From Patescibacteria group bacterium (GTDB lineage Bacteria; Patescibacteriota; Minisyncoccia; Phycocordibacterales; EsbW-18): a stretch of 64,000 bases of DNA. The stretch lies in NCBI GenBank assembly GCA_038063815.1, contig JBBTUJ010000002.1, positions 6,511 through 70,510 on the forward strand. The letters run 5' to 3'. Shown here piece after piece: positions 6,459 through 62,081 of the stretch. Below the pieces are notes generated by a model that saw nothing but the letters and a program-made list of their open reading frames with translations, made no database searches and had not been told where the DNA came from. Position 1 is the first letter of the stretch, and each line of letters opens with the position of its first letter. The position numbers and the translations under genes were made by a program.

Positions 6459-6943
6459 GCGAAGGACGCCCTCCTCTGGGGGTGGGATGTGGACGCCGTA
6501 CGTTGTCGGCATTGTTGTCTTCGGGTGTGGAATACGATCGCGTCTCTGAAAGCCGCCTCGGCCTCTTCCGCCCCCCCCACGCGATTTATCACCAGAAGGA
6601 CGTTTGGAATGCGTTGGATGTGCGTGGGGATGTCCCAACGGTCGGCTTGGTGGGCGACTCGATGGTCGCGCTTGCTGATGCGGCCGTGCTCCTCGATGAG
6701 GATGTTGGTGGGGTGTCGTGGTGTGGGGCGCGAGAGCGCTGAAGGTGCGTCTCCGCCGCATGCCGGTGTCTCCGGCAACCTGTCCGTTACTTTGTTGAGG
6801 CCTTGGTGTCGGTATGCTCTCGGGTGCACGAAGGACGCGGATGCGTGATCTCTGTTGACCGTCTGCGCCAATATTGCGACGGCCAAGCTGGTGGCGATGT
6901 GAATTGTCTATCATTAACGATGCTTAATTGAGTAAGAAGTGCC

Positions 6944-8668
6944 TTAGTTGTTTTGAAATAGTGAAAGAATGCTTCGGGTCGCTTTGTGCCACGAATAGAC
7001 ATCCATAAAACGTTCACTTGCTTCATCCAGCGGTCCCGCAGAGATTCCTTTGAGGATTTTGGGAACGAGGTAGAGCATTTCCGGAGCGTACAGGAACACT
7101 GCCGGCATGTCGGATTCGATTTCTTCTGCAAGCGAGACGTAGAGTTCTTGCCGTTCGTTTGCGTCAAGGGTGGTCCGAATGTCCTCCAGTATAGCATCGG
7201 TCGTTATGTTTGCATAGAGGGCGATATTGAGGCCCGGGTCGTTTCTTTGTGAAGAATGCCAGAAGGGAAAAAGATCTCCGCCGCGTCCGATGACTTGTCC
7301 GAACAGGAGCGCGTCATATGCACGTGGGCGGATCACTTCTTGGTGGAGCGCTCCGATGTCGAAGAGTTCTATTGTGACCAGTACTCCCAAGTTCTCCCAC
7401 ATGCGCTTCAGAACCTCCGCGGTTCTCTTCAGCTCGGGCGTGTTCGCCGTTGAGAGTGTGAAGGAGAGCGGAGCGTCATCTTTCATAAAAATACCATCCT
7501 CTCCCATCTCCCAACCATCTTCTTCAAGAAGCGCACGTGCTTCCTTGAGGGTCCCTTTGACATGTTCTTTCGAAAAGTTTTCCAACGGCGGAATAACAGG
7601 GCCTGTCACGGGATTTCCGTAGCCATAGAGCACTTCCGTGATGAGTACGTCCGTATCAATAGAGGTTGAGAGTGCTTCACGAATAGTCGCATCGGTGAAA
7701 ATCTCTTTTTCATTTTGATTAAAGAAAACACCAAAGAGACGTGTCAGAGGATAACGGATAATGCGCACATCGTCCTCGAGATCGTGTCCGTATACAGGAT
7801 CGATTCCCTTGACGGTGTCGATGGTGTCACTGAGGAATGCCTCAAGGGCCGCTTCCTCAGTATCATATGTTTTGATACGGAGACCTTGAAGGCGCGGAGC
7901 ACCGAGTGTGAAATTGGTGAAGCGCGTGAGGGCATATTCAGTGGGGATTCCCGATGCGTCACGTGTTACACGGTCTACCTTGAACGGTCCTGATCCAACC
8001 GGTAGTGTATTCAGTCGATGTACTGGAAATGTTTCTGCTGTTGTGTTTTCCCACAAATAACGGGGGAGAATGCCCAATGTCGTGTTTTCCAAAAATGGTG
8101 TATATGGCCGAGGTAATGTAAAGACAACGGTGTGTGTATCTTCCGCCGCGACGGTGATGCCCTCCCATATATATTGAACAGCGCTTCCCATGAACGGATC
8201 TTGGGCGCGCGTGATTGTGAAAACGACATCTTCCGCTGTTACAGGTTGCCCATCGTGGAACGTGGCATCCTTTTTGAGTACGAATGTGTACACGGTGCCG
8301 TCATCTGACACGGTGTACTTCTCTGCCAAGTCCGGCACGAGAGTTCCTTCCGGTGTCGGCCGCATAAGGCCGGAATAGATAAGTGCGGACAAGTCCTTGT
8401 CGATATCCGACTGTGCGAGAAGTGGATTTATGAACCGCGGCGTTCCGACGATGCCTTCCGTGAGAGTGCCTCCCGATGCGGGCACAGTGACGGAGTATTC
8501 TTTCCAAAGGGTCCGAAGCATGATGCCCGTTGAGATGACGAGAACGAGTCCAAGTGTGGAGAGGAGTATCCGTTCAAGGAAAGAGAGACGCGAAAGTCCC
8601 TCGCGAAGCGCGCGAGTGCCGGGAAGTGTGGTCAAGCGTTGTAAATCAGGAGTGTTCACAAAAAACAA
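6944..8668 (-). CDS. ABC-transporter substrate-binding protein, family 5 (oligopeptide/dipeptide-type), membrane anchored, orphan
   Basis: 574 aa with an N-terminal TM anchor and SBP_bac_5-like organisation. No permease or ATPase genes adjacent. Confidence 0.75.
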   Translation of the reverse strand: MFFVNTPDLQRLTTLPGTRALREGLSRLSFLERILLSTLGLVLVISTGIMLRTLWKEYSVTVPASGGTLTEGIVGTPRFINPLLAQSDIDKDLSALIYSGLMRPTPEGTLVPDLAEKYTVSDDGTVYTFVLKKDATFHDGQPVTAEDVVFTITRAQDPFMGSAVQYIWEGITVAAEDTHTVVFTLPRPYTPFLENTTLGILPRYLWENTTAETFPVHRLNTLPVGSGPFKVDRVTRDASGIPTEYALTRFTNFTLGAPRLQGLRIKTYDTEEAALEAFLSDTIDTVKGIDPVYGHDLEDDVRIIRYPLTRLFGVFFNQNEKEIFTDATIREALSTSIDTDVLITEVLYGYGNPVTGPVIPPLENFSKEHVKGTLKEARALLEEDGWEMGEDGIFMKDDAPLSFTLSTANTPELKRTAEVLKRMWENLGVLVTIELFDIGALHQEVIRPRAYDALLFGQVIGRGGDLFPFWHSSQRNDPGLNIALYANITTDAILEDIRTTLDANERQELYVSLAEEIESDMPAVFLYAPEMLYLVPKILKGISAGPLDEASERFMDVYSWHKATRSILSLFQNN

Positions 8669-8689
8669 TCCGAGGGAGCATTCTGCTTC

Positions 8690-8908
8690 CTACGAAAGAA
8701 GGGCTACAAGTGAAGTGATCACGTAGATAATCGCAACAACAATTGTTGCGATAAAAACGACTTTTTCAGGTCCACGGCGCGTTCGTGTGGGTCCTCCGTC
8801 ATCTCCGCCAAATGCCGCACCCATTCCTGCCTCGTTGTTCTGAAGTAGGATAAGGACGACGAGCACCAGAGAGATAATGATCTGAATGATTGAAAACATG
8901 TCTGTCAT
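8690..8908 (-). CDS. secG: Preprotein translocase subunit SecG
   Basis: 72 aa, two TM helices, Gly-rich loop (MFSIIQIIISLVLVVLILLQ...GGDDGG...). Confidence 0.65.
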   Translation of the reverse strand: MTDMFSIIQIIISLVLVVLILLQNNEAGMGAAFGGDDGGPTRTRRGPEKVVFIATIVVAIIYVITSLVALLS

Positions 8909-8973
8909 ACCGTTCCTTCATACTAACACAGGATACGTTTTCCTGTCTAATCCGAGGTATACTACATCAAACT

Positions 8974-10620: not shown

Positions 10621-10690
10621 AAAAATAGCGAAGTGTCAAGTATGCAAGAAGGGCCCGTTCGCGTACAATGGTGCCACTTCAAGGGGTATT

Positions 10691-10708
10691 TGTGGTTTCG
10701 AAACCACA
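10691..10708. promoter_or_regulatory. Perfect 18-bp palindrome TGTGGTTTC|GAAACCACA upstream of groES (not CIRCE)
   Basis: Seen directly, 40 nt upstream of the groES ATG. A TACAAT -10-like hexamer lies at 10654-10659. Confidence 0.3.
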
Positions 10709-10747
10709 TCTCTTTTTATCCACAGCTAACACTTGTGCAAGGTTTTT

Positions 10748-11083
10748 ATGGCGAAATCAAAATCAAAATCGAAATCAAAGAATACAAAAGAACGCATCGC
10801 ACCTCTGGGAGATCGCGTGCTTGTTCGACCCCTCTCACAAGAGGAAGGTATGAAGCGTCCCTCAGGTATCATCATTCCCGATACGATTGATAAGGAACGT
10901 CCGCAGGAAGGAGAAGTCATCGCTGTTGGTCCGGGAAAATATGATGACGGAAAACTTGTTCCACTGTATGTCAAAAAAGGTGACCGCGTCCTTTTCTCGA
11001 AGTATGGATACGACGAAGTGAAAATCGACGGTGTCGAGTATTTTATTTTAAAGGAAGAAAATATCCTTGCAGTTTTAAACTAA
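10748..11083 (+). CDS. groES: Co-chaperonin GroES with an N-terminal (KS)4 extension
   Basis: [13 protein letters not shown] ... GEVIAVGPG ... mobile-loop and roof motifs. The N-terminus [12 protein letters not shown] is encoded by an (AAATCA)4 hexanucleotide repeat. Confidence 0.9.
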
Positions 11084-11130
11084 CCCTAATCGCCAACTTC
11101 TAACCTCCAACATCTAACTCCTATTTCTAT

Positions 11131-12765: not shown

Positions 12766-12800
12766 AATAGGTTGCAGGGTATAGCTTTTTTGGGGATAGA

Positions 12801-12838
12801 AAAACACAAGGCAGAGATGCCTTGTGTTTTTCTGTTTC
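12801..12838 (+). terminator. Rho-independent terminator after groEL
   Basis: aaaacacaaggca-gaga-tgccttgtgtttt followed by tctgttt. Confidence 0.6.
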
Positions 12839-12885
12839 CGTTATATAATGTTCGTTAAACCAGTTGCTCTTTCCGGGGGGAAACA

Positions 12886-13023: not shown

Positions 13024-13046
13024 TGCGCAAGACCAAATCTACCGCC

Positions 13047-13073
13047 AGCCGCCTTCGGGCGGCTTTCGCTTTT
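13047..13073 (+). terminator. Rho-independent terminator (agccgcc-ttcg-ggcggct + U tract)
   Basis: Hairpin followed by ttcgctttt. Closes the small transcription unit after groEL. Confidence 0.55.
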
Positions 13074-13145
13074 ATGAGAAAATTCAAGTAAAATGTATCT
13101 ACGTTTTTCCTATAACCTACAACCTTAATCCTATAACCTATCCTT

Positions 13146-14196: not shown

Positions 14197-14197
14197 T

Positions 14198-23551: not shown

Positions 23552-23680
23552 GCTGTCAGTAGATACTACACATACGTTTCTTTTGCAAATTTTCGTATCT
23601 CATAACCCAGAAAAATTTTATATGACGCACGAACGCCCCGGGGTCACCGGAGCGCGAGGGAACAAAGACGACCCGTGTGG

Positions 23681-23959
23681 TCAAGCCCGTTTGCACGGGG
23701 GACATTTTGGACCAGCAACAAACCATGTCCCGCATGCAGCACACTTTCGCTGTTTGCCGTCGTGGGCGCAAAGGCCCGTTATAAGCAGGCCCACGACGGC
23801 CGCTCCCCAGAAAGTGCCGTTCCAGACACTTTGGGGGTGTCCGAAAATCAGATGGGAGATTCCCCCGATCACGGACCCAACGAGTCCGCCAAAGATTCCG
23901 CTGGCCAGCAGAATGACAAAGAGGCCTCTTACGGTTCTTGCTATGCCGCGAAACGTCAT
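23681..23959 (-). CDS. Hypothetical small membrane protein with a C-terminal CxxC...CxxC zinc ribbon (GC-rich insert gene)
   Basis: AGGGGGA SD 7 nt upstream, three TM helices, C-terminal CAACGTWFVAGPKCPPC. GC-rich codons unlike the flanking topA and dprA. Confidence 0.4.
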   Translation of the reverse strand: MTFRGIARTVRGLFVILLASGIFGGLVGSVIGGISHLIFGHPQSVWNGTFWGAAVVGLLITGLCAHDGKQRKCAACGTWFVAGPKCPPCKRA

Positions 23960-24039
23960 CTGGGTTCCCCCTGAGGTAGAAGTGCGTGGTGTGCAACCTA
24001 TTCCCTTTATATGCTTACTAAACTACGAAGTCAATTTCG

Positions 24040-24912
24040 TCACGCACGTTCCATTTTTCCGAGGCGCTCAGTGAGGATTCCTTTTATTTCCATCGTTGAA
24101 ATGACAATTTGTGCTTGTGAGAGTGGCATTCCTGATACTCGAACAACTTCATCTCGTGTCATCGGCTCTGTAAGTAATTTAAAAATCTTTTGCTCCTCGT
24201 CCGTTATGTCTTTTCTCTGCACATCGTTCATTGTTTCTTGTTCGTCTATCTTGATTTTAAGTACCTCTAGGATATGTTTACTTTCGCACACGGCCTGTGC
24301 TCCTTCGCGCAAGAGCGCATTTGAACCGTTTGCGGAATCCGAAAGGACAGACCCCGGAACGACAAGAACGTCGCGGTTGTACTCCATCCCGAGACGCGCG
24401 GTTATAAGCGTTCCTGATTTTTCTGATGCCTCGATAATAAGGATGGCGTGGGACATTCCCGCCATGAGGCGATTACGTTCGGGGAAACTCCACACCCCCG
24501 CTTTTTGCTCAGAATCATATTCAGAGAGGAGTGTGCCGCCCTCGCGAACGATGCGTCGCGCAAGTCCGACATGTGCTCGAGGATACAAAATATTTTCACT
24601 AAGGCCCGACCCCGGGACGGCGATTGTTGGTAATCCGGCAGAAATCGCGGCCTCATGCGCGATGCCATCAATTCCCAAAGCAAGCCCGGATACAATCGCG
24701 ACGGGGTATCCGGAAAGTCCTCGTATCAATCGTTCGCAAACATTTTTTCCATATGGTGAATAACGTCTCGAGCCGACGACACAAAGGTATTTTGTTTCGG
24801 GCGGTGGAAGCGCACCTTGTATAAAAAGGCGCTTCGGCGGGTCCGTGATCTCACGAAGAAGGGGAGGAAAGCCGCTTTGGGGAATGGAACGGATATCCAT
24901 AGCGGTATCCAT
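24040..24912 (-). CDS. dprA: DNA processing protein DprA (Smf)
   Basis: Rossmann-like DprA domain (GLALGIDGIAHEAA, SGTLITA) plus a C-terminal winged-helix extension. dprA upstream of topA is a conserved linkage. Confidence 0.85.
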   Translation of the reverse strand: MDTAMDIRSIPQSGFPPLLREITDPPKRLFIQGALPPPETKYLCVVGSRRYSPYGKNVCERLIRGLSGYPVAIVSGLALGIDGIAHEAAISAGLPTIAVPGSGLSENILYPRAHVGLARRIVREGGTLLSEYDSEQKAGVWSFPERNRLMAGMSHAILIIEASEKSGTLITARLGMEYNRDVLVVPGSVLSDSANGSNALLREGAQAVCESKHILEVLKIKIDEQETMNDVQRKDITDEEQKIFKLLTEPMTRDEVVRVSGMPLSQAQIVISTMEIKGILTERLGKMERA

Positions 24913-27184: not shown

Positions 27185-27228
27185 GAAACGGGCGGGGGAT
27201 GAGCCCCGCCCGCGTCCAGGAGGAAGGT

Positions 27229-27378
27229 CTAGAGCACCAAACTCGGCACCAGCCGCTTCGCATGCGTGGCGTGACCCCCATTGAGGGCCTTTCTTGCGGC
27301 TTTCTGTTGTCGGCGGCGAGCTTTCTTCTGCGCGGCCCTTCTCAGCCGTTCACTGAGGGGACGCTTGTTGATCGCCAT
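27229..27378 (-). CDS. Hypothetical 49-aa highly basic protein (MAINKRPLSERLRRAAQKKARRRQQKAARKAL...)
   Basis: AGGAGGAG SD 8 nt upstream of the ATG. GC-rich insert. Not assignable to a ribosomal protein family by eye. Confidence 0.3.
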   Translation of the reverse strand: MAINKRPLSERLRRAAQKKARRRQQKAARKALNGGHATHAKRLVPSLVL

Positions 27379-27472
27379 GCGTGTCGCTCCTCCTGGTTGT
27401 GGCCTTGGTAGGCCGGGTCCACTAAAAAATGTAACATTTGAGCCATTCTGGGGCAAGTGATATGGTTGTCAT

Positions 27473-28435: not shown

Positions 28436-28441
28436 AACAAG

Positions 28442-28467
28442 CGGCCGTCGCGGGAACGCGACGGCCG
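28442..28467. terminator. Perfect 11-bp stem hairpin (cggccgtcgcg-ggaa-cgcgacggccg); bidirectional terminator candidate
   Basis: Lies between the convergent dus and 28490..29086 genes. U-rich run on the minus-strand side. Confidence 0.5.
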
Positions 28468-28489
28468 AGGCGGTACTCCTCTTCCGGTG

Positions 28490-29086
28490 TTACTGGTTGA
28501 GGAGGAGAAGATCTTCGATCTCGATAGAGCGGACGACTGCCTTCACTGCTTCATAGCGCGCTCGTGCGCGCTCATGAATGTGTCGCACCGTTCTGCCAAG
28601 CCCGAGGTACACTTCCTCGCCGGCACCAAGAACTTCTTGCAGGACCACATCTGTAGCGGGAAGGGCGGGACCTGATGGTACCCGCATCTCTCCCATGCGT
28701 TGTAGAAGTTCGAGGAGGGAGACCGTTGTCGTCTCCAGGGTAGCAACGTGCTCCCTTTCCTTCACGACGACGATACACCACTCGCCGTCAACAGTGAACC
28801 CGTAGAACCACTGGTCGACTCCGGTGGGCGCGTTCTCTAGTAGTGCCCAGGCCCTGCTAAAGAGTCGAAAGTGTCCGTACAGATTCCACCTCTTGTCGTC
28901 GACATGTTTGGTGCCTTTGTTTCCTGGCACCTGTGAATACACGTCGGTGAATTTCGTTGGTGTGAATGTTGCAAACAGCACAAAGAGCGTTTTGGCGCGC
29001 CGCTCGATGAGGCGCACCCACTTTTCTGGGCTTGTGACTCTCTGACTGCACATCCGCACGACAGGATTTCCCCTCAGATTGCTCAT
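28490..29086 (-). CDS. Hypothetical protein, 198 aa, GC-rich codon usage
   Basis: GAAGGAG SD 6 nt upstream of the ATG at 29086. No recognisable domain. GC3-rich codons unlike the flanking dus and dnaX. Confidence 0.5.
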   Translation of the reverse strand: MSNLRGNPVVRMCSQRVTSPEKWVRLIERRAKTLFVLFATFTPTKFTDVYSQVPGNKGTKHVDDKRWNLYGHFRLFSRAWALLENAPTGVDQWFYGFTVDGEWCIVVVKEREHVATLETTTVSLLELLQRMGEMRVPSGPALPATDVVLQEVLGAGEEVYLGLGRTVRHIHERARARYEAVKAVVRSIEIEDLLLLNQ

Positions 29087-29236
29087 CCTCTACTCCTTCT
29101 CTCCGGCTGGCGCACCTGCCGGTTGTATTGAGGGGCGCACCCCTCGGTCCGGAAGGAGTATGCCTTACATATCATTCTCGGGTCAATGAATACAACGTAC
29201 AAAAGAGTGTAATCAAGGCATGGTATACTCGTTCAT

Positions 29237-35727: not shown

Positions 35728-36642
35728 ATGATTCCTCAGTTTGTAGAAATTAAAACAGGAGATGGACTGGCACTTCCCGGACTTCTTTACACCTCTTCAA
35801 AATCAAAGTCACTTGCTATCTTTTTGCACGGTAATGGTAGTACTTCAGTTTTCTACGATGGAAATGAAAATCGTATATTTGCGGATGCATTAGCGAAGAA
35901 AGGAATCTCTACGCTCTTCTTCAACAATCGAGGTGCACACATTATCAAGAAACTCAATGTGCAGAAGGGAAAAAAGAAAGATCGCAAAGCATTTGGAATG
36001 GCTCATGAGAAGATCAGGGGGTGTATAGAAGATATCGACGGTGCGGTAGCATTTGGAAAGAAGCGGGGATTCAAAAGTTTTTACCTCATTGGGCTCTCAA
36101 CTGGGGCTAACAAAATTTGTGTTTATAACTACTACAAACCACGAAATCAGATACGTAAATACGCAATCATTTGTGGAAGTGATGACACGGGTATTTATTA
36201 TCACCAGCTTGGGAAGGCAAAATTTTGGAAATTACTCAAATTGTCAAAACAACGAATTGTTCTAAAAAAGGGTGACGAGTTGATGCCCGAACTTTTACCT
36301 AACGAAATATTTTCGAATACTGGCTTCCGTGATATTGCCAATCCAGACGGTGACTACAACGTTTTTCCATTTTATGAGGTACTGCAGAAAGTGAAACTAT
36401 CGAAGAAGCCGCTTTTTCGACACTTTAAGTCGATTAAAAAACCCTCTTTGGTGGTATACGGAGGTAAAGATGAATACGCGTGGGGTGATGTTTCTAAGGT
36501 GGTTGAGATTCTGAAATCAAAACAACCCAATTTCGAATATAAAATAATCAAAGGAGCCAACCATGGTTTTGTTGGATACGAACATTCTTTGGCAACAACA
36601 ATAGCAAGTTGGTTGAGTCAACTACAATTAAGATCCAAGTAG
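35728..36642 (+). CDS. Alpha/beta-hydrolase-fold protein
   Basis: GLSTG nucleophile elbow and a C-terminal His. Markedly AT-rich (~38% GC) compared with neighbours. Confidence 0.6.
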   Translation: MIPQFVEIKTGDGLALPGLLYTSSKSKSLAIFLHGNGSTSVFYDGNENRIFADALAKKGISTLFFNNRGAHIIKKLNVQKGKKKDRKAFGMAHEKIRGCIEDIDGAVAFGKKRGFKSFYLIGLSTGANKICVYNYYKPRNQIRKYAIICGSDDTGIYYHQLGKAKFWKLLKLSKQRIVLKKGDELMPELLPNEIFSNTGFRDIANPDGDYNVFPFYEVLQKVKLSKKPLFRHFKSIKKPSLVVYGGKDEYAWGDVSKVVEILKSKQPNFEYKIIKGANHGFVGYEHSLATTIASWLSQLQLRSK

Positions 36643-36674
36643 AGAGATGCTGTTTTGGTCCCAAAAAGGGATAC

Positions 36675-39299
36675 ATGCAAAACGATATGCTTACCAAAGA
36701 AATACAAAATCGACCGTTCTGGTCTTTGTCTCTCGAGGACACTGCATTGATGCTCCGCACGGACCCGAAACGGGGACTTTCCGAAAAAGAGGCAACTGCG
36801 CGTCTTTTGATCTTCGATGAGAATGTTATCGAACGTGCAAAGGTAACGCCATGGGTCCGCATACTTCTCAACCAATTCAAGAGTCCGCTCATCATACTTC
36901 TTGTCGTTGCGGGTGGTGTCACACTTTTTATACATCACGTTCGTGACGCGGGGTTCATCTTTGCCGCGGTTATCGTTAACGCGGCACTTGGTTTCTATCA
37001 GGAGCATAAGGCCGAACGAGCGCTCGCTGAATTGAGAACGTATCTCCGACAGCGTGCCCGTGTCGTCCGAGATGGAGTCGAGCGTGAGATTGATGCGGCG
37101 CATCTTGTTCCCGGTGACGTGATACGCCTGTCACAAGGCGATCGTGTTCCTGCGGACGGACGTCTGGTCTATGTGAACGATGTGCAGATTGACGAATCCA
37201 TTCTGACGGGTGAGTCACTCCCTGTTTCAAAGACGCACGATCCCGTTGTTCCGGACGCTGTTCTTGGTGATCAGAGGTCTATTACGCTCGCGGGAACACT
37301 GGTCACTCAGGGTGTCGCCACCGCGCTCGTCTGCCGCACGGGGTTTGCGACTGAATTGGGAAAGATTGCGGAGTTGGTTAGTGCCGCGCAGCGCGAAGAA
37401 ACACCGCTTCAGGGCGCTATCAGACGTTTTAGCATGCATGCCGGCATCGTACTTGGCGTGCTCACAATCATTATTTTTGGTGTCGGTGTGTCGTTCGGCT
37501 ATTCACACGCCGAGATGTTCCTCATGGCTGTCGCAATCGCTGTGTCGGCTGTGCCGGAAGGACTGCCTGTGGCGATGACGGTCATCTTGGCAATCGGAGT
37601 TGAACGCATGGCAAAGCGTAAGGGCGTTGTGAGAAGGCTCGTAGCTGCCGAAGCGCTTGGAGATACGACGCTCATTCTCACGGACAAGACGGGGACTCTG
37701 ACGATGGGACAGATGGAACTTCGCTCGCTCATGCCTGCCTCCGGGACGAGCGAGGAGGAACTTCTTTCACTCGCGCTCATGAATACGAATGTGAACGTCG
37801 AGAATCCGAATGATCCGCCGCAGGAATGGCGCATGACGGGACGCACGCTTGAACTGTCACTTGTCCGCTCAGCGGGGGTGCGTGGTGTGCGAGTTGGAGA
37901 TGTCAAAGAGGGTGTGTCTATTGTCCGGTCCTTGCCGTTTAACGCGGTCAATAAGTTTTCTGCGTCTCTTGTGGATGAGAATGGAGAACACACGCTCATA
38001 TTCCTGGGCGCGCCCGACGTGCTCATCAAGCGCTCGACACTCTCCACCGAGAAGCGTGATGCAATGCTCGCGTCGGTTGACGCGCTCGCGCGCTCGGGCG
38101 AACTTGTCCTCGGTGTTGCGGAAAAAAAGATTGGGAAGAAAAAAGATTTTGATTTTACAAAGGACCTCATGTTCGATGATGTGGTGATGCGTGGTGTTCT
38201 CACGCTCCGCGACACTGTTCGTCCAAGTGTAAAGGATGCAATCGCAAAGGTCAGATCGGCGGGGATACGGGTTGTCATCATGTCGGGAGATCATCGTGGG
38301 ACGGTCGAGGCCGTAGCGCGTGAGGTTGGTATTGAAGTCGGCACGGAAAGCGTCCTCGATGCCTCTGAATTGCAGGCGCTTCCTGACAAAGGGCTCCGTG
38401 CGCGATTGTCAGCACTCTCCGTTATTTCACGGGTGTCTCCTCTCGATAAATTGCGAGTTCTCACGGCGTTCCAGGAAGCGGGAGAGATTGTTGCGATGAC
38501 AGGGGACGGGGTCAATGACGCACCGAGCGTGAGACAAGCCGATGTCGGCATTGCCATGGGATCGGGAACAGAAGTGACACGCGATGTTGCTGACCTTGTT
38601 TTGCTCGATGACAACTTCGAGACAATTGCTGCCGCCGTTGAAGAGGGTAGGCAGATTTTGGGGAATATTCGCAAGGTCCTTGTGTATCTCCTCTCGGGTG
38701 TTCTTGATGGACTTATCCTTATCGGCGGGGCGCTCTTGACTGGGACTGCGCTTCCTTTGAATGCGCTCCAGATTCTCTGGGTCAACTTCTTCTCGGACAG
38801 TTTTCCCGCGATTGCGTTCGCGTTCGAGAAAGACGGCAGCGTGTCGCTGGTGAGGCACGCACGCGGCCGCATTGAGCTCTTCAGCCCGGTCATGAGATAT
38901 CTCATCCTTTTTATCGGTATCTCGACAAGCGTGCTTCTCTTTGCGCTCTATTGGTTTCTTCTCCGCGCGGGATTTTCAGAGGGTTTGGTTCGGACATTCA
39001 CCTTTGCGAGTTTTGGGACGTATTCGCTCTTTCTCGCATTTGCTGTGAGGAGTTTGGAGAAAAGCATTTTTGAATATCCTCTTTTTTCGAATAGATATCT
39101 CGTTTCCGGCGTGGGTATTGGTATTGTTCTCATGCTTGCGGCGGTATATGTTCCGTTCCTCCAAACGCTCTTTGACACGGTACCATTGCCTCTCCCGTGG
39201 CTTCTCGGCGTTGTCGGTGTTGGTATTTTAAATATCGTTCTCATCGAGAGTGGGAAGTGGCTTTTCCGGCGCAGAGATCGTTTGGCGCCGAGCCTTTAG
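36675..39299 (+). CDS. Cation-transporting P-type ATPase (P2-type, Ca2+/Mg2+-like)
   Basis: TGES, DKTGTLT, TGDGVNDAPS and about 10 TM helices. Start moved to the ATG at 36675 (MQNDML). Confidence 0.85.
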   Translation: MQNDMLTKEIQNRPFWSLSLEDTALMLRTDPKRGLSEKEATARLLIFDENVIERAKVTPWVRILLNQFKSPLIILLVVAGGVTLFIHHVRDAGFIFAAVIVNAALGFYQEHKAERALAELRTYLRQRARVVRDGVEREIDAAHLVPGDVIRLSQGDRVPADGRLVYVNDVQIDESILTGESLPVSKTHDPVVPDAVLGDQRSITLAGTLVTQGVATALVCRTGFATELGKIAELVSAAQREETPLQGAIRRFSMHAGIVLGVLTIIIFGVGVSFGYSHAEMFLMAVAIAVSAVPEGLPVAMTVILAIGVERMAKRKGVVRRLVAAEALGDTTLILTDKTGTLTMGQMELRSLMPASGTSEEELLSLALMNTNVNVENPNDPPQEWRMTGRTLELSLVRSAGVRGVRVGDVKEGVSIVRSLPFNAVNKFSASLVDENGEHTLIFLGAPDVLIKRSTLSTEKRDAMLASVDALARSGELVLGVAEKKIGKKKDFDFTKDLMFDDVVMRGVLTLRDTVRPSVKDAIAKVRSAGIRVVIMSGDHRGTVEAVAREVGIEVGTESVLDASELQALPDKGLRARLSALSVISRVSPLDKLRVLTAFQEAGEIVAMTGDGVNDAPSVRQADVGIAMGSGTEVTRDVADLVLLDDNFETIAAAVEEGRQILGNIRKVLVYLLSGVLDGLILIGGALLTGTALPLNALQILWVNFFSDSFPAIAFAFEKDGSVSLVRHARGRIELFSPVMRYLILFIGISTSVLLFALYWFLLRAGFSEGLVRTFTFASFGTYSLFLAFAVRSLEKSIFEYPLFSNRYLVSGVGIGIVLMLAAVYVPFLQTLFDTVPLPLPWLLGVVGVGILNIVLIESGKWLFRRRDRLAPSL

Positions 39300-54773: not shown

Positions 54774-54829
54774 GAGGGCAATTTTTGTGGTAAAATCTTT
54801 GCAGAGCAGTTTTTCGAAGGAGGTTGCTT

Positions 54830-55186
54830 GTGACGACTCGAATACGGAAGTATCGCTGGTTCGTGGGGACTTCGCATCCCGAAGCGAACCGACACATCGG
54901 TAATGAGCTTGCTGCACAGGGTCTCGTTGTACAGTCGGAGATGCGCGAGACGCTGTGCGCCGACAGTATCCGACGCGATCTGTGGGAGATCGCATCGTAC
55001 AAGCTCGTTGTCGCGTTTCAACGGGGACCACTGGGTCGAACGATGGAGGTTTTTCGCGCTGAGGGAGGTGGCCGTCCTGCCGCGTGGCCTCCCGTAGCTC
55101 GTACGATTGGAGGATCGGTGCGGGCCAATCTTCCGCCCGTTCATCGTGGGACCTCACATCTTCCTCCCCCTCGTCCTCGGGGCTAA
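54830..55186 (+). CDS. Hypothetical protein (118 aa) in a GC-rich insert, GTG start
   Basis: GAAGGAGG SD 6 nt upstream of the GTG, followed by a strong terminator. No domain recognised. Confidence 0.4.
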   Translation: MTTRIRKYRWFVGTSHPEANRHIGNELAAQGLVVQSEMRETLCADSIRRDLWEIASYKLVVAFQRGPLGRTMEVFRAEGGGRPAAWPPVARTIGGSVRANLPPVHRGTSHLPPPRPRG

Positions 55187-55199
55187 ACGCCCCTCATGT

Positions 55200-55238
55200 G
55201 GGCCGGCGCGTGTTGCGCCGGCCCGCTTTTCTTTTCTG
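55200..55238 (+). terminator. Rho-independent terminator (gggccggcgc-gtgtt-gcgccggccc + gcttttcttttctg)
   Basis: 10-bp GC stem plus a U tract. Confidence 0.55.
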
Positions 55239-55241
55239 TGT

Positions 55242-55279
55242 ACCCGGGCACTAATTCTCCAAAAAGTTAGTGCCCGGGT
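55242..55279. promoter_or_regulatory. Perfect 13-bp inverted repeat ACCCGGGCACTAA-N12-TTAGTGCCCGGGT, 12 nt upstream of the uvrB ATG
   Basis: Seen directly. Operator-like. It is not a CTGT-N8-ACAG or GAAC-N4-GTTC LexA box. Confidence 0.35.
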
Positions 55280-55290
55280 ATACTACGCAT

Positions 55291-57336
55291 ATGTCAGTTT
55301 TTAACCTCAAGAGCGAGTTTGAACCCGCGGGTGATCAACCCAAGGCGATCGAGGCCTTGACCACAGGACTTCAAGCAGGGAAGCGTCATCAAACGCTCGT
55401 GGGTGTCACGGGTTCTGGTAAGACGTTTACTGCGGCGCACGTGATCGCGAATACGGATAAACCGACGCTTGTTATCGCACACAACAAAACACTTGCGGCA
55501 CAACTAGCACAGGAGTACCGAGAGTTCTTTCCTGACGCGGCGGTACACTATTTTGTCTCATACTACGACTACTATCAGCCGGAAGCATACGTTCCTGTTA
55601 CGGACACGTATATCGAAAAAGAAGCGCAGATCAACGAAGAGATCGATCGTCTGCGCCACGCGGCAACGCAGGCACTTCTGACCAGAAAAGACGTTATCGT
55701 TGTCGCGTCGGTTTCATGTATCTACGGTTTGGGTTCTCCTGAAGAATATGAAAAAGTGCATTTGAAACTTGCGGTGGGTGATACAAAGGGTCGTGCCGAT
55801 CTTATTCGTGAACTCATCCGTATCTACTTTGAGAGAAGTACAACAGATCTCTCGCCGGGACAGTTCCGCGCCGTGGGGAGTGTCGTTGAGATTATGCCGG
55901 TCAACGAACGGGTGGTGTATCGGATCGATTGTACGAATGACACCATCACAAATATCCAGGTTCTTGATCCTGTCTCGTTCATGATTAAAAAAGAAGTCGA
56001 GACGCTTTTCATGTTTCCCGCAAAACACTTCGTTTCAAGCGACGAGCAGATCAAGAGCGCCCTTGTTTCGATCAAAGAAGAAATGGAGAAACAAATCGAG
56101 AAACTGAAGAGGGAAGGGAAGGAACTTGAGGCAGAACGTCTGAAACGCCGTACGACATATGACCTCGCGATGATCCGCGAAGTCGGATACGTGACGGGAA
56201 TCGAGAATTACTCGCGCCATTTCGACGGACGTGCGCCGGGAGAGCCACCGTACACACTCCTTGACTACTTTCCGAAGAAAAAAGATGGTACACCTGATTT
56301 TTTGACGGTTATTGACGAGTCGCACGTGACAATCCCCCAGATTGGCGGTATGTATGCGGGCGATCGCTCACGAAAAGAAACGCTTGTTGATCACGGATTT
56401 CGTCTTCCCTCGGCGATCGACAACAGACCACTTATGTTCGAAGAATTCGAAGCACGAGTGGGACAGGTCGTCTACACAACAGCAACACCTGGGCCATATG
56501 AACTCGAGAAAAGTAAGGCAGAAAAAGAAGGAGTATTGGTCGAACAAATCATCCGTCCCACAGGGCTCATCGACCCTGAGGTCATCGTGCGGCCAATCAT
56601 GAGCACTGCGGAATATGAAGGGCAGGTGCAGGATTTCATAAAAGAATCGGAAATGGTTATCAAGCGTGGCGGGCGCGTTCTTGCGACAACACTCACCAAA
56701 CGGATGGCGGAGGATCTTGCAGAGTTTCTCATTGCTCGTGGTGTGAAGGCGGTCTATCTTCACAGTGACATCAAGACAATCGAACGCATCGAAATCCTGA
56801 CGAATTTCCGAAAAGGCGAATTCGATATGATTGTCGGCGTGAACCTCCTACGTGAAGGACTCGATCTCCCTGAAGTCGAACTCATTGGTATTCTTGACGC
56901 TGACAAGGAAGGATTTCTCCGTTCCGAAACAGCTCTCATCCAGACGATCGGCCGCGCAGCGCGCAATATCCTCGGGCGTGTCATTCTCTACGCCGATGTT
57001 ATGACCGGTTCGATGGAGAGGGCAATCGGGGAGACGAATCGACGTCGCGCAATCCAGGTCGCACACAACACGAAGCACGGAATCACGCCGCAGACGATCA
57101 AAAAGAAGATCTCCGACATCACCGACCAACTCATGAAAGATCATGACAAGGCGGTCGAACTCGATCTCTCAATGGTCCTCGCAAACGGAAAGAAACCTGC
57201 TGATATAAAACGAGTCATTAAAATAAAAGAAGGGGAAATGAGCGCGGCGGTCAAGGTTCTTGATTTCGAAACTGCAGCGATAATCCGCGACGAAATTAAA
57301 AAACTCGAAGGGATGCTTACGAAGAAAAAGGAATAG
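55291..57336 (+). CDS. uvrB: Excinuclease ABC subunit B
   Basis: Helicase motifs GVTGSGKT, DESHVT, beta-hairpin region, C-terminal UVR domain. Start set at MSVFNLKSEF. Confidence 0.95.
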   Translation: MSVFNLKSEFEPAGDQPKAIEALTTGLQAGKRHQTLVGVTGSGKTFTAAHVIANTDKPTLVIAHNKTLAAQLAQEYREFFPDAAVHYFVSYYDYYQPEAYVPVTDTYIEKEAQINEEIDRLRHAATQALLTRKDVIVVASVSCIYGLGSPEEYEKVHLKLAVGDTKGRADLIRELIRIYFERSTTDLSPGQFRAVGSVVEIMPVNERVVYRIDCTNDTITNIQVLDPVSFMIKKEVETLFMFPAKHFVSSDEQIKSALVSIKEEMEKQIEKLKREGKELEAERLKRRTTYDLAMIREVGYVTGIENYSRHFDGRAPGEPPYTLLDYFPKKKDGTPDFLTVIDESHVTIPQIGGMYAGDRSRKETLVDHGFRLPSAIDNRPLMFEEFEARVGQVVYTTATPGPYELEKSKAEKEGVLVEQIIRPTGLIDPEVIVRPIMSTAEYEGQVQDFIKESEMVIKRGGRVLATTLTKRMAEDLAEFLIARGVKAVYLHSDIKTIERIEILTNFRKGEFDMIVGVNLLREGLDLPEVELIGILDADKEGFLRSETALIQTIGRAARNILGRVILYADVMTGSMERAIGETNRRRAIQVAHNTKHGITPQTIKKKISDITDQLMKDHDKAVELDLSMVLANGKKPADIKRVIKIKEGEMSAAVKVLDFETAAIIRDEIKKLEGMLTKKKE

Positions 57337-57348
57337 AAAATCAAAACC

Positions 57349-57388
57349 CCCGTCCTGCCGATCTAAAATAGCATCGGTTGAGGACGGG
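57349..57388. terminator. Hairpin cccgtcct...aggacggg with a U-rich run on the minus strand; terminator for the 57456..57881 gene
   Basis: Seen directly. Confidence 0.45.
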
Positions 57389-57455
57389 AGCGCTTCACAC
57401 AAGCCCGAGGGTTCAAGGATTCGAAAATCCGAGAGAACCGAGGGCTCAGGTGAAG

Positions 57456-57881
57456 TTACTGCAGCTCGAGGCGGACGAGCCGAAAGTACCGGCCGAAGGC
57501 GCGGCCGAGCCAGAAGAACTTGAGGTACCACGCGCCGCAGCCCCAGATGAGACACGTGACGCGTCGGCCGCTGTCCTCCGGACGCCGCCAGATTGTTCCC
57601 GTGAAGACGAGCGCGAACTGGCGGTATTCCTCCGGTATGTCCTTCTGCTGGCCGAGCAGTTGCTCGGCGTGGCGCTGACCCGTGGTGCCGTCGAGCGCCG
57701 TGGCTCGCGTCACCATCTCCTCGCCGCCGACGTACTCCTCGCCGTCGCGGAGGAACTCCGCGAGCGTGAGAACGGGCTCACCGACGAGCGGTTCGTCCTC
57801 GAGCAACTCCCATCCTTCTTTGCGCTTGTCGTTGGCGAACCCGGTCAGGGGCGTCAACTTAACTGTTGGATACGTCTGCAT
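57456..57881 (-). CDS. Hypothetical protein (141 aa) with strongly GC3-biased codons
   Basis: AAGGAGAAG SD 5 nt upstream of the ATG (MQTYPTVK...). Codons ctc/gag/gac/ggc dominate, unlike the flanking uvrB and uvrA. Confidence 0.5.
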   Translation of the reverse strand: MQTYPTVKLTPLTGFANDKRKEGWELLEDEPLVGEPVLTLAEFLRDGEEYVGGEEMVTRATALDGTTGQRHAEQLLGQQKDIPEEYRQFALVFTGTIWRRPEDSGRRVTCLIWGCGAWYLKFFWLGRAFGRYFRLVRLELQ

Positions 57882-57926
57882 GGTCTTCTCCTTGGTCAGA
57901 AAGCAGTTTTTGTGCTTCAAAATCGG

Positions 57927-57977
57927 AAATCCCAGCCCTTAACATGTCTTAGATTGACATCCTAAGGGCTGGAATTT
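57927..57977. promoter_or_regulatory. Perfect 15-bp inverted repeat AAATCCCAGCCCTTA-N21-TAAGGGCTGGGATTT in the divergent region between the GC-rich gene and uvrA
   Basis: Seen directly. The spacer contains TTGACA. Confidence 0.3.
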
Positions 57978-58119
57978 CTTTGAGTAACTTCACAATGTGT
58001 TAAAGAACGTATGAATATATTATAGCATACCTTGTGCATGAAGGTCAAGGGTGTTGAGGGAGAGGTGTGTTATGCTGTCTCTACACCCCCCGCACAAAAA
58101 GCGTGGGGCACATTCTCGT

Positions 58120-60816: not shown

Positions 60817-60836
60817 AGACAAATTAGTACAGAACC

Positions 60837-61766
60837 ATGCGTTCTCCCTCTGATAATCCATTCCTTGCAAATAAGTCCGCTCTTCGAAAAGAGGCGGAAG
60901 ATGATACGCGTCTTGCGCGCGAACGACAGCGTGCGGAAGAAGACACGCGCAAACGTCAACGCAAAACGGTTCTTCAGGCAGAGCTGACACATCTCAAGGG
61001 CGACCTTACTCGAAAAGAGAGGGAAAAAGATGTGCTTCTTCGTGAAAAAAACACACACCTGCATACACAGGATCGTTTGCGTGCGACCGTTCGTGTGCCA
61101 ACCGCGGGGACTCATGAACAATCTGAAAAAGAGCGAGCGGTTAAAACGCTACAAGCGGAACTTGACCGAATCCATCATGAAAAAGATGCACTGACCCGTG
61201 AAGAGGGCTCCCTTGATCGAGTTTTGAGAGATTTTGCAAATAAACAAGACACCTCCTCTTCACATGCTGTTTCTCACGGAGACCTCGACCTCAAGGATGC
61301 AGAACAGGCGGTTGCAACACTTGAAAAAGAATTAAAAGAACTCGAGAGGGAGCACTTAGCAAAAGAGCATGAACTCTCTCTTGCGCGTGCGACTCTCGCG
61401 CGCGCAACACGCGAGGAAGAATCAGCACTACGTCATGAAAAAGAAGGTGAAAAGTCGCAACATCTTGAAGAGGGAAAAGAAAAGCGAACACAAGTCGCGC
61501 GAGAACAACTTGCGCACGCCCTTATACGCCTTGCGGGAGAAGAGCGGGTACTCCTTGAAAAAATTGCAGCGGCAAAAAGAGAAGTGGAAGAATATGCACG
61601 TACGCTCAAAGACGCAGAGCGAACAAAGAGCAAGGCAACAGAAGAAGAACGGCACGAATCAATTGTTCTTGGGCAGGAAGAACGAAAGGAAGAGATACTT
61701 ACACGAGAAATCACTGATATAAAAAATAGAATCGCTGAGATCGAGAGAGAAGTGAGATCTCTATAA
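60837..61766 (+). CDS. Hypothetical E/R/K-rich coiled-coil protein
   Basis: Continuous heptad-like charged sequence. No domain recognised. Confidence 0.5.
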   Translation: MRSPSDNPFLANKSALRKEAEDDTRLARERQRAEEDTRKRQRKTVLQAELTHLKGDLTRKEREKDVLLREKNTHLHTQDRLRATVRVPTAGTHEQSEKERAVKTLQAELDRIHHEKDALTREEGSLDRVLRDFANKQDTSSSHAVSHGDLDLKDAEQAVATLEKELKELEREHLAKEHELSLARATLARATREEESALRHEKEGEKSQHLEEGKEKRTQVAREQLAHALIRLAGEERVLLEKIAAAKREVEEYARTLKDAERTKSKATEEERHESIVLGQEERKEEILTREITDIKNRIAEIEREVRSL

Positions 61767-61817
61767 TTGGTAACGCCGCCCCGAAGCTACGGGGCGGCGC
61801 AAAACCGCGAGACGGAC

Positions 61818-62006
61818 TCAGCCCTTCAAGATGCCCGCCTCGCGCCACCGCCGGAGCGTGCGTTGGTCGGGAGTGAGTTCACCCCTGTACAGCACTTCCT
61901 GCTTGGTGGTGGGGCTCTTGGGAAGCTGTCGGTATGCCCCATTGATCGCCTGCAGCGTCTTGTCGAGTTCGGTGTCGACGATTGGCTCTCCCGTAGCGGC
62001 CATCGC
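61818..62006 (-). CDS. Hypothetical 62-aa protein in a GC-rich insert (C-terminus HTH-like: TPDQRTLRRWREAGIL)
   Basis: AAGGAGAG SD 6 nt upstream of the ATG. GC3-rich codons. Confidence 0.35.
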   Translation of the reverse strand, partial: AMAATGEPIVDTELDKTLQAINGAYRQLPKSPTTKQEVLYRGELTPDQRTLRRWREAGILKG

Positions 62007-62081
62007 CCTCTCCTTCGCAAGATTCATCGTCCACCTCGCTTGGTTGGTCCTGCATCTGCAAATCATGTTAAAATATTTTCA

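Follow-up and report, generated by a model that had tools for sequence, protein, structure and literature searches.

Horizontal-transfer hotspots and islets lie between core genes in bacterial chromosomes, and newly acquired and orphan bacterial genes are usually AT-richer than their host. Genomes of Patescibacteria are very small and streamlined, and a life attached to other cells is presumed for these bacteria; the few sites at which they accept new genes, and the genes found there, bear on their adaptation to hosts. In diversity-generating retroelements (DGRs), a reverse transcriptase (RT) copies a template repeat (TR), randomizes its adenines, and writes the copy into a C-terminal variable region (VR). 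C-type-lectin-fold DGR variable proteins have been described from Bordetella phage (Mtd), Treponema denticola (TvpA), and Nanoarchaeota (AvpA) (PMC5006420, PMC5758913).

We analyzed a stretch of 64,000 nucleotides (the window) from the genome of a groundwater member of the Patescibacteria (Parcubacteria/Paceibacteria-like) that carries seven GC-rich patches. The explanation we favor, and consider reasonably probable, is that these patches are a mixed set: small accessory genes in slots between core genes, one of them (o141) related to DGRs, and one patch in the RNase J gene. Like transfer hotspots, the locus has conserved core flanks, content that varies among close relatives, and compositionally atypical cargo consisting mostly of unknown small genes. 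However, the cargo here exceeds the host GC by 8 to 15 points, the slots are occupied by single small genes with no integrase, tRNA, or phage genes, and one genome pair retained the promoter and leader while the open reading frame (ORF) was swapped from the start codon onward. The locus shows accessory genes confined to a handful of fixed gaps among housekeeping genes, and their being GC-richer than the genome is a small anomaly, the reverse of the usual trend for acquired bacterial genes.

The GC content of the whole window is 0.482. Its genes of at least 150 amino acids, which served as the host baseline, have a GC content of 0.484 ± 0.033 and a third-position GC content (GC3) of 0.481 ± 0.055. 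The initial annotation had described seven GC-rich patches in DNA of about 48% GC, and this description held: patch GC ranges from 0.528 to 0.601 (Table 1), and a blind scan with 300-nucleotide windows and a cutoff of at least 0.08 above the median (0.483) returned all seven, one extra stretch, and nothing else. The extra stretch (37051 to 38600), absent from the earlier list, is the interior of a P-type cation ATPase gene. Sliding-window GC sets the patches apart from the average, and four of the ORFs show coding periodicity, with a GC3 of 0.62 to 0.85. We found that the GC excess has two sources. In patches 1 and 5, and partly in patch 2, it comes from amino acid makeup (Arg, Pro, Gly, and Ala), with GC3 near that of the host (0.52 to 0.58). 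In patches 3, 4, 6, and 7 it lies at the third codon position (GC3 of 0.62 to 0.85), which would mark a GC-rich accessory pool and not the host mutational regime.

Table 1. Features of the seven GC-rich patches, with window coordinates
Patch	Feature	Coordinates	Strand	Patch GC	GC by codon position	Comment
1	First ~150 codons (~152) of the 702-aa RNase J ORF	6458..6914	-	0.598	0.70/0.62/0.52 (RNase J frame)	Arg/Pro/Gly/His-rich
2	o92, 92 aa	23681..23959	-	0.528 (core 23601-24000, 0.573)	0.58/0.56/0.58	Between dprA and topA; from sequence and translation
2	Terminator-like hairpin of o92	23687-23670	-			Terminator scan
3	o49, 49 aa	27229..27378	-	0.601	0.64/0.50/0.70	Highly basic; between an unknown 292-aa gene and dus
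3	Terminator of o49	27213-27188	-			Terminator scan; 10 pairs, 9/10 G-C
4	o198, 198 aa	28490..29086	-	0.560	0.63/0.41/0.62	Orphan; between dus and dnaX
4	Terminator of o198	28467-28442	-			Terminator scan
5	o118, 118 aa	54830..55186	+	0.579	0.71/0.56/0.55	Between an NDH-2-like gene and uvrB
5	Terminator of o118	55198-55226	+			Terminator scan; 13 pairs
6	o141, 141 aa	57456..57881	-	0.594	GC3 0.85	C-type-lectin-fold DGR variable-protein homologue (predicted); between uvrB and uvrA
6	VR-equivalent of o141, last 46 codons	57459..57596	-			Aligns to the 131-nt VR of L083/L093; scaffold residues kept
6	Promoter-like site and leader hairpin upstream of o141	57926..58048	-			
6	3' region of o141	57345..57455	-			Small hairpin, long GC-rich hairpin, then T-run
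7	o61, 61 aa	61818..62003	-	0.601	0.63/0.48/0.77	Between a 309-aa coiled-coil gene and uvrC

Six of the patches are independent small genes, made up of a promoter-like site, a Shine-Dalgarno (SD) sequence, an ORF, and a terminator or hairpin. The six SD-led ORFs that had been listed are all present, with AGGAGG/GGAGG-type sites 6 to 9 nucleotides upstream (AGGAGG for o49 and for o118, which has a GTG start; GGGGGA for o92; AAGGAGAGGG for o61). The strong hairpins noted at the patch edges were also found, and four of them are strong intrinsic terminators in the same orientation as the small ORF; the hairpins of o141 and of o61 (61774 to 61799) do not fit the rules of the terminator scan. A second hairpin 3' of o118 (55238 to 55283) overlies the uvrB promoter, and there is a promoter-like site upstream of o198 at 29186 to 29157. 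Pfam matches confirmed that the neighbors are conserved genes, but the placement of patch 7 directly after uvrA was wrong, because the 309-aa coiled-coil gene intervenes.

None of the encoded proteins had been thought recognizable. This fails for o141, which has homologues, and otherwise largely describes the set: four ORFs outside patches 1 and 6 are orphans. No family match was obtained for o92, o49, or o61, and neither o92 nor o61 matched anything in the protein collection or, together with o118, in a plasmid search. For o49, Rfam gave subthreshold matches only, all on its terminator. A viral-contig search with the o141 family, o198, and o118 likewise gave no match. The o118 protein is NCBI MEK7579046.1, a hypothetical protein in a singleton cluster. 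In public gene calls o198 has 187 aa and starts at Met12; among 5.8 billion proteins it matched only itself, a full HMMER search returned itself and two short matches to repeat proteins, and its single-sequence structure model was uninformative (pLDDT of 37). From its sequence, o92 would have two hydrophobic helices and, at the C terminus, a CxxC...CxxC motif. Short, without homologues, and left uncalled by public pipelines, o92, o49, and o61 could be nonfunctional. No donor was found for the patch genes.

The missing gene calls would also fit a suggestion of the initial annotation that the patches are GC-rich structured RNAs. The patches would then be noncoding RNA genes, with the ORFs as by-products of GC-rich sequence with few stop codons. 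Several frames are open simultaneously in patches 1, 5, and 6. In addition, tiles of patches 2 to 7 fold more stably than shuffled sequences on both strands (mean minimum free energy z about -2.4; most tiles from -1 to -5, one positive), while twelve control tiles, the GC-rich ATPase gene included, average a z of 0. However, with the excess present on both strands, inverted repeats at the DNA level and terminators are indicated rather than a single RNA. Rfam 15 at the gathering score found three tRNAs only in the whole window, and the scan of each patch at an E value of ≤1 found no family, with nothing beyond subthreshold terminator-like matches. Four ORFs follow the coding pattern GC3 > GC1 > GC2, each ORF has a correctly spaced SD and most have a same-strand terminator or hairpin, homologous proteins exist for o141 and its fold is predicted with confidence, and no DNA-level conservation of the patches was seen in sister genomes. 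We therefore give the RNA reading very little credence.

Another suggestion had been that the patches form a family of selfish genes, which would make them copies of one small mobile element (MITE-like, integron-cassette-like, or homing). They are discrete, compositionally foreign, and situated between conserved genes with hairpins at their edges; a perfect 11-nucleotide inverted repeat brackets the o141 unit (57450 to 57460 and 57983 to 57993; about 0.07 expected by chance); and in the sister genomes L095 and L096 cargo was exchanged behind a conserved leader. However, all-against-all blastn of the seven patches with a word size of 7, the comparison that had been proposed, gave chance matches only, and there was no protein similarity between patches. 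Since they have neither DNA nor protein similarity to each other, they are not one family. Nor do they have in common any terminal repeat, target duplication, or recombination site (TIR, TSD, attC-like); their hairpins differ in sequence and resemble ordinary terminators, and each patch is single-copy within the window. None of the small ORFs resembles a transposase or integrase or matched any other family, no RT is present in the window, and no recombinase, transposase, or integrase occurs among the Pfam-matched gene calls of window positions 1 to 17 kb and 18.5 to 39 kb (about half the window) or among the tested neighbors. A selfish family is thus highly unlikely. The alternative wording, independently acquired small genes, agrees with what we observed: the ORFs are mutually unrelated, the units are self-contained, and other GC-rich genes occupy the same junctions in sister genomes.

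We compared the slots of the sister genomes across three junctions. In L094, L095, and L096, UvrB is 77 to 78% identical to that of the window and synteny is the same. All three, and the P0006 locus as well, retain the arrangement ndh-uvrB-uvrA-(about 310 aa)-uvrC, and the small ORFs in the gaps differ. The uvrB-uvrA gap reaches a GC content of 0.57 to 0.62 in the three sister genomes, versus 0.48 to 0.51, as does the gap before uvrC in L094 and L096, and the real cargo genes of these genomes have a GC3 of 0.69 to 0.87. In more distant relatives the junctions are compact or not GC-rich. Thus, syntenic core flanks enclose content that varies between close relatives, which is what defines an accessory-gene slot. 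In the pair L095 and L096, UvrB is 90% identical and a 139-nucleotide promoter and leader, reaching to the start codon, is 76% identical, but the cargo proteins are unrelated (Smith-Waterman z of -0.4). Unrelated cargo next to UvrB that is 90% identical indicates replacement and not divergence. The gaps between housekeeping genes may thus serve as slots for replaceable accessory genes, and the exchange of cargo would most likely occur by recombination through the conserved flanks. The GC-richness of the cargo and its excess folding stability are features that stand outside this accessory-slot model.

Replacement also bears on whether the ORFs are native genes, either fast evolving or newborn in the lineage, that owe their GC content to amino acid makeup and local sequence and not to transfer. 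Such an origin would suit patches 1, 5, and 2, where the excess lies at codon positions 1 and 2, and o198, which has no relative anywhere searched. It would also suit the ndh-uvrB slot, whose ORFs retain traces of homology (z of 6.0 for L094 versus L096; a weak z of 2.3 for o118 versus the L095 ORF at that position). However, the GC3 of o49, o61, o141, and the sister-genome cargo (0.70 to 0.87) is 4 to 7 standard deviations above that of host genes, L095 and L096, with UvrB 90% identical, carry unrelated cargo, and homologues of o141 occur in distant Patescibacteria contexts. We consider a native origin unlikely.

The o141 gene of patch 6 is the cargo whose kinship can be traced. It belongs to a small Patescibacteria family with homologues that are 40 to 56% identical; P0002 and P0003 are 55 to 56% identical to it, and the family alignment shows scaffold positions kept and template-Asn positions varied. 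The structure model of o141 (pLDDT of 85, pTM of 0.83) resembles proteins with a C-type-lectin fold, TvpA and Mtd among them. Two relatives, L083 and L093, lie in complete DGR cassettes with RT, Avd, and a 131-nucleotide TR/VR pair (561-691/1067-1197 in L083 and 6277-6407/6749-6879 in L093). TR and VR are 84 to 86% identical in these cassettes, and in L083, 20 of the 25 differences are at TR adenines, with the remainder at the boundaries. The coding-strand adenine fraction of the o141 VR-equivalent is 0.11, compared with 0.07 to 0.13 in active VRs and 0.22 in the rest of o141. Homology and predicted fold together show o141 to be a minimal C-type-lectin-fold protein, kin of DGR variable proteins, and its role would likely be ligand or surface binding.

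Compared with Mtd, TvpA, and AvpA, o141 is very small, and it falls outside every Pfam and NCBIfam family. It also has no TR, RT, or Avd within 69 kb. In the window, a 60-nucleotide sliding comparison in all strand combinations found no adenine-differing TR/VR pair, the family HMM found no TR-encoded peptide, and tblastn with the L083 proteins found no RT or Avd; gene calls up to 5 kb beyond the window start contain neither of the two. Since o141 stands alone, it would be either a target on which a distant retroelement of this genome acts or a target that has been orphaned. A second, independent assembly has the identical VR, another difference from the described proteins, and DGR activity on o141 is for this reason only putative. 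The 3' end of the gene is GC-rich (CGGCTCGTCCGCCTCGAG) with hairpins downstream, but without a TR an IMH is indistinguishable from an IMH*, and the 3' alignment is weak; in that weak alignment, the short motifs CCTTGG/CCCTCGG are common to the 3' regions of family members. Upstream, the promoter-like site (58048 to 58019; 11/12 matches, with TG) is followed by a leader hairpin with 23-nucleotide arms (57978 to 57926). These results give a better annotation to one hypothetical protein family, a previously unannotated minimal C-type-lectin protein.

A further difference from Mtd, TvpA, and AvpA is that the whole gene in the o141 family, and not the VR alone, has about 60% GC in hosts of 0.35 to 0.48 GC, even where relatives adjoin their own AT-rich RT and Avd genes (GC of 0.40 to 0.43). 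Because this holds in low-GC hosts, GC-richness may be a maintained property and not a trace of recent transfer. A bolder generalization, which we regard as quite unlikely, is that slots at set positions (ndh|uvrB, uvrB|uvrA, uvrA-309aa|uvrC, perhaps also the dus flanks and dprA|topA) are maintained throughout a clade of Paceibacteria-like groundwater bacteria, and that unrelated genes of very high GC3 are swapped into them precisely from the start codon onward, at least one slot having a conserved promoter and structured leader. The GC-rich accessory pool supplying these genes would include stand-alone DGR variable proteins, and its GC-richness and excess structure would be no donor relic, being actively maintained by a process tied to the making or exchange of cargo genes.

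Patch 1 differs from the others. It had been described as intergenic, and it lies within an ORF (4806..6914, minus strand) that is publicly called as a 702-aa RNase J. Its GC excess is at codon positions 1 and 2, with a host-like GC3. The match to the RNase J profile TIGR00649 begins at residue 151-152, and solved RNase J chains align to the ORF from a start at about residue 142 to 151 onward. Patch 1 is probably a basic disordered N-terminal extension of RNase J; the alternative is a GC-rich leader. A competing +1-frame ORF runs from 6886 to 6455, and its TGA overlaps the ATG of Met153. Start candidates are Met1, Met135, and Met153, and the choice is ambiguous. Because Met1 has no SD while Met153 is preceded by a strong one (GGAGG), the extension is putative and its translation is in doubt. 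The RNase J of Helicobacter pylori is similar by length and alignment start: in its chain 8cgl_A (705 aa), alignment to the core starts no earlier than residue 144, and the 702-aa ORF likewise has about 150 residues ahead of the conserved core. The Arg/Pro/Gly/His-rich makeup of the extension and its start without an SD set the ORF apart from the H. pylori protein. The result for patch 1 is a caution on the annotated RNase J start site.

The GC-rich patches described in the initial annotation are real. A blind scan with 300-nt windows and a threshold of at least the median + 0.08 recovered precisely these seven plus one further stretch, against a window GC content of 0.482. For the 49 ORFs with 150 aa or more, GC content is 0.484 ± 0.033 and GC3 is 0.481 ± 0.055; the GC content of the patches is 0.53 to 0.60, with 300-nt peaks of 0.58 to 0.68. 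We computed GC by codon position for each ORF, and this sorted the patches into two classes (table). In patches 1, 5, and 2, the excess lies in codon positions 1 and 2 and GC3 is near the host value, which reflects proteins rich in Arg, Pro, Gly, Ala, and His. The small ORFs o141, o61, o49, and o198 (numbers give the length in amino acids) show the pattern across codon positions that is typical of GC-rich coding genes, with GC3 2.5 to 7 standard deviations above that of host genes. Orphan genes are usually AT rich, but the cargo here is GC rich instead. We infer that the GC3-rich genes came by transfer. The further stretch, absent from the first list, lies inside a P-type cation ATPase gene. 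It is a milder outlier than the patches (GC 0.56, peaks 0.59, gene GC3 0.56) and was possibly also acquired.

The six small ORFs of patches 2 to 7 are present where they had been placed, each behind a Shine-Dalgarno sequence of the AGGAGG/GGAGG type at normal spacing, and they are presumably translated. The flanking hairpins proposed for the patches were also borne out: four ORFs are followed immediately, on their own strand, by the strongest hairpins of the terminator type in the scanned regions. Upstream of o141 are a near-consensus promoter and a leader hairpin. Pfam searches confirmed the neighbors that had been named, namely, RNase J and an SBP_bac_5 gene, topA and dprA, dus and dnaX, and, in the uvr region, an NDH-2-like oxidoreductase, uvrB, uvrA, and uvrC. 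The exact flanks of two patches needed small corrections; patch 3 lies between a 292-aa gene of unknown kind and dus, and patch 7 lies between a conserved coiled-coil gene and uvrC. The latter gene, located between uvrA and uvrC, encodes a coiled-coil-like protein that is rich in Glu, Lys, and Arg and lacks Pfam domains; sister genomes have a counterpart of 304 to 311 aa in the same position. A mechanical ORF list makes two genes too long: the probable start of uvrB is ATG 55303, not GTG 55270, and that of uvrC is ATG 62082 (MLRQDFDKIKLPDTPGVYLF), not TTG 61767, a start that would make uvrC overlap o61.

Features of the window, sister-genome loci (L094 to L096), and loci with o141 relatives (L083 and L093)
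Feature	Sequence	Position	Strand	Properties
RNase J gene call	window	4806-6914	-	702 aa
Patch 1, RNase J frame	window	6459-6943	-	GC1 0.70, GC2 0.62, GC3 0.52
+1-frame ORF in patch 1	window	6455-6886	-	143 codons; GC by codon position 0.64/0.52/0.69
Patch 2, o92	window	23560-24040 (ORF 23681-23959)	-	GC1 0.58, GC2 0.56, GC3 0.58
Hairpin after o92	window	23687-23670	-	terminator scan
Patch 3, o49	window	27185-27470 (ORF 27229-27378)	-	GC1 0.64, GC2 0.50, GC3 0.70
Hairpin after o49	window	27213-27188	-	terminator scan
Patch 4, o198	window	28440-29236 (ORF 28490-29086)	-	GC1 0.63, GC2 0.41, GC3 0.62
Hairpin after o198	window	28467-28442	-	terminator scan
ATPase gene	window	36609-39299 (peak 37051-38600)
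Patch 5, o118	window	54775-55270 (ORF 54830-55186)	+	GC1 0.71, GC2 0.56, GC3 0.55
Hairpin after o118	window	55198-55226	+	terminator scan
Patch 6, o141	window	57340-57985 (ORF 57456-57881)		GC1 0.67, GC2 0.44, GC3 0.85
o141 leader hairpin	window			23-nt arms
o141 promoter	window	58048-58019		near-consensus, 11/12 matches plus TG motif
11-nt inverted repeat	window	57450-57460 / 57983-57993		perfect
Coiled-coil gene	window	60837-61766		309 aa
Patch 7, o61	window	61770-62080 (ORF 61818-62006)		GC1 0.63, GC2 0.48, GC3 0.77
uvrB-uvrA gap gene	L094	12140-12613		157 aa, GC3 0.69
GC peaks	L094			uvrB-uvrA gap 0.60; before uvrC 0.60; background median 0.51
uvrB-uvrA gap gene	L095	12520-13287		255 aa, GC3 0.82
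GC peaks	L095			uvrB-uvrA gap 0.60; before uvrC none; background median 0.48
uvrB-uvrA gap gene	L096	12499-13440		313 aa, GC3 0.87
GC peaks	L096			uvrB-uvrA gap 0.62; before uvrC 0.57; background median 0.50
Conserved promoter and leader	L095	12391-12525		before unrelated GC3-rich gene
Conserved promoter and leader	L096	12368-12499		before unrelated GC3-rich gene
o141 homologue	L083	255-686		followed by 131-nt repeat of its 3' end, bAvd gene, RVT_1 reverse transcriptase
Repeat pair	L083	561-691 / 1067-1197		84% identity, 25 differences
118-nt inverted repeat	L083	686-803 / 2595-2712		97% complementary
VR / TR	L093 (72-kb contig)	6277-6407 / 6749-6879		with Avd and RT; arrangement as in L083

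Patch 1 had been counted as an intergenic insert like the others. Public gene calls place it inside a single RNase J gene, and whichever start is used, it is not the same kind of intergenic insert. One alternative is that translation does not include the full N-terminal extension of this RNase J. Met1 has no Shine-Dalgarno sequence, Met153 has GGAGG 11 nt upstream, and a +1-frame ORF without a Met codon ends in a TGA that overlaps the ATG of Met153 (ATGA; window 6456-6458). The match to the RNase J profile TIGR00649 begins at residue 151-152, and alignments with solved RNase J chains begin near residue 142-151; the Helicobacter pylori chain has an extension of its own of ~140 residues and aligns only from its residue 144. 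However, the motif VLRMIPLGG upstream of Met153 continues the conserved first strand, and a start upstream of Met153 is therefore favored. Patch 1 could instead be modeled as coding for the +1-frame ORF.

The patches are unrelated to one another. When every patch was compared with every other by blastn (word size 7) and blastp, the matches were at chance level only, we found no second copy of any patch elsewhere in the window, and the patches share no terminal repeats besides the hairpins. Their sole common property is composition. Thus, the suggestion of one family was wrong, and six of the seven patches are best described as small genes that were acquired independently. That none of the products is recognizable held in family searches for o92, o49, o61, o118, and o198, with nothing above chance in Pfam, PHROGs, NCBIfam, or PADLOC; it did not hold for o141, which likewise drew no hit above chance in these collections but falls in a family of targets of diversity-generating retroelements (DGRs). 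Searches of plasmids by tblastn with o118, o92, and o61 gave no match, nor did a scan of viral contigs for the o141 family, o198, and o118. A word-indexed search of 5.8 billion proteins with o198 returned only itself, and full HMMER against 1.84 billion representatives added two short matches (residues ~61-108). We discounted these as relatives, one of the proteins resembling a translated tandem repeat. The single-sequence structure model of o198 has a pLDDT of 37. In NCBI, o118 is a hypothetical protein in a singleton cluster, and o92, o49, and o61 with these boundaries are absent from the protein collection. Judged from its sequence, o92 may encode a membrane peptide that has two helices and, at its C terminus, a CxxC...CxxC motif; the predicted o49 product is a very basic peptide.

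The other reading offered for the patches was that they are GC-rich structured RNAs. In its favor, tiles of patches 2 to 7 fold more stably than dinucleotide shuffles, with z mostly between -1 and -5 on both strands; at 57340-57769 and 28440-28969, for example, the minimum-free-energy z reaches -3 to -5 for either strand. The mean z of twelve control tiles, among them the GC-rich ATPase gene, is 0, and the folding energy of patch 1 is the same as that of shuffled controls. However, the only Rfam hits at gathering score in the window are three tRNAs, and E-value searches over all patches returned nothing meaningful. The stable folding stems in part from the terminators and leader hairpins, and the excess also occurs in ORF interiors, including the o141 and o198 tiles. 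Because it is present on both strands and without DNA conservation in relatives, this folding does not point to any particular RNA gene, and the structured-RNA reading is unsupported. We take the excess self-complementarity to be a property of the cargo.

We propose that patches 2 to 7 are accessory genes in replaceable slots between core genes, with the cargo exchanged via the conserved flanks, presumably by recombination, and that one occupant, o141, is a minimal C-type-lectin DGR variable protein. We examined the uvr-region junctions of three sister genomes, whose UvrB proteins are 77 to 78% identical to that of the window (L095 and L096, 90% to each other). All three keep the gene order response regulator-ndh-uvrB-uvrA-(about 310 aa)-uvrC. 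The genes in their uvrB-uvrA gaps have no Pfam domains and no similarity to o141 or to one another (Smith-Waterman z of -1.6 to 0.1). L095 and L096 have in common a 139-nt stretch (76% identity) with a promoter of the form TTGACA/TATAAT and a hairpin in the leader (ACGTACGTCTTGG...CCAAGACGTAC, loop variable). The similarity runs through the start codon and ends just past a common ATGCA; therefore, the cargo was replaced and did not diverge. This leader was not found in the window. ORFs in the ndh-uvrB gap carry traces of homology (L094 versus L096, z = 6.0; o118 versus L095, z = 2.3), and this slot may hold one fast-evolving gene. In a further relative (P0006; 79% identical), three small minus-strand ORFs separate uvrB from uvrA and two lie ahead of uvrC, and in a 75% relative ndh directly adjoins uvrB. 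Among Parcubacteria further removed, the junctions are compact or are occupied by ordinary genes with host-like GC.

The closest relatives of the window's UvrB (55303-57336) come from metagenome-assembled genomes of Patescibacteria, Parcubacteria, and Paceibacterota, with 68 to 69% identity among species representatives and 76 to 79% among all public proteins. Parts of contig CAYHBV010000001.1 (GCA_964355065.1, 178.6 kb) are identical to the window, and Hainich groundwater (ENA) and Logan assembly contigs are 99.9 to 100% identical to it. Since the patch junctions are present in independent Logan, ENA, and NCBI assemblies, they are not chimeric, and an assembly chimera was ruled out as the cause of the patches. 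As to population variation, all other assemblies of this genome are 99.9 to 100% identical, too close for dN/dS analysis.

In NCBI, o141 is "hypothetical protein AAB460_00740." It has three homologues among 5.8 billion proteins, at 40 to 56% identity, and two more from JGI metagenomes. Two relatives lie in complete DGR cassettes, in L083 and L093, which contain a template repeat (TR), a variable region (VR), the accessory protein Avd, and a reverse transcriptase (RT). In L083, 20 of the 25 differences between the repeats are at adenines of the second copy, which codes for an Asn-rich peptide, and the remainder are at the boundaries. These are the defining marks of a DGR (PMC5758913). An inverted repeat in L083 encloses the TR-Avd-RT module, with its first arm starting from the stop codon of the target and its second at the contig end; this arrangement reflects either a module that can invert or an artifact of assembly. 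In another locus, L082, which adjoins a topA gene of 74% GC and looks chimeric, this target protein recurs with the RT oriented the other way.

The alignment places o141 within this DGR-target family: its last 46 codons, at 57459-57596 on the minus strand, line up with the VRs and preserve the scaffold residues W, L, G, and RLVR. The adenine fraction of the VR-equivalent coding strand is 0.11, compared with 0.07 to 0.13 in active VRs and 0.22 in the rest of the gene. We sought whole-gene depletion of adenine as a trace of retro-copying and found it in the o141 VR only; elsewhere, the coding strand is depleted in T. The structure model of o141 has the C-type-lectin fold, and the FGE/EgtB group is named alongside; in Foldseek comparisons with PDB and viral structures, C-type lectins ranked at the top, below significance. 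A role in ligand binding is likely. No DGR RT or Avd was found in the window by tblastn, an adenine-specific TR/VR scan in all strand combinations found no TR there, and the 5 kb beyond the window start contain no RT, Avd, or TR. A family HMM run on the window and 97 loci, translated in six frames, returned only known members and their TRs, with no TR from the window. An independent Logan assembly carries the o141 VR without a single difference. Family membership without a partner retroelement in the window therefore means that o141 either is acted on by a retroelement located elsewhere in the genome or has ceased to be diversified.

Five family members have a GC content of about 0.54 to 0.60 and a non-VR GC3 of 0.60 to 0.83, and the local GC of their hosts is 0.35 to 0.48. 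In L083 and L093, the RT and Avd genes adjoining the target are at 0.37 to 0.43 GC. A GC-rich target beside AT-rich partners in one cassette is hard to reconcile with simple recent transfer. Around o141, the 11-nt inverted repeat (GTGAAGTTACT / AGTAACTTCAC) encloses the whole unit, from the stop codon to beyond the leader hairpin; ~0.07 such pairs are expected by chance in a stretch like this one. The o141 cargo lies on the strand opposite to that of the sister-genome cargo.
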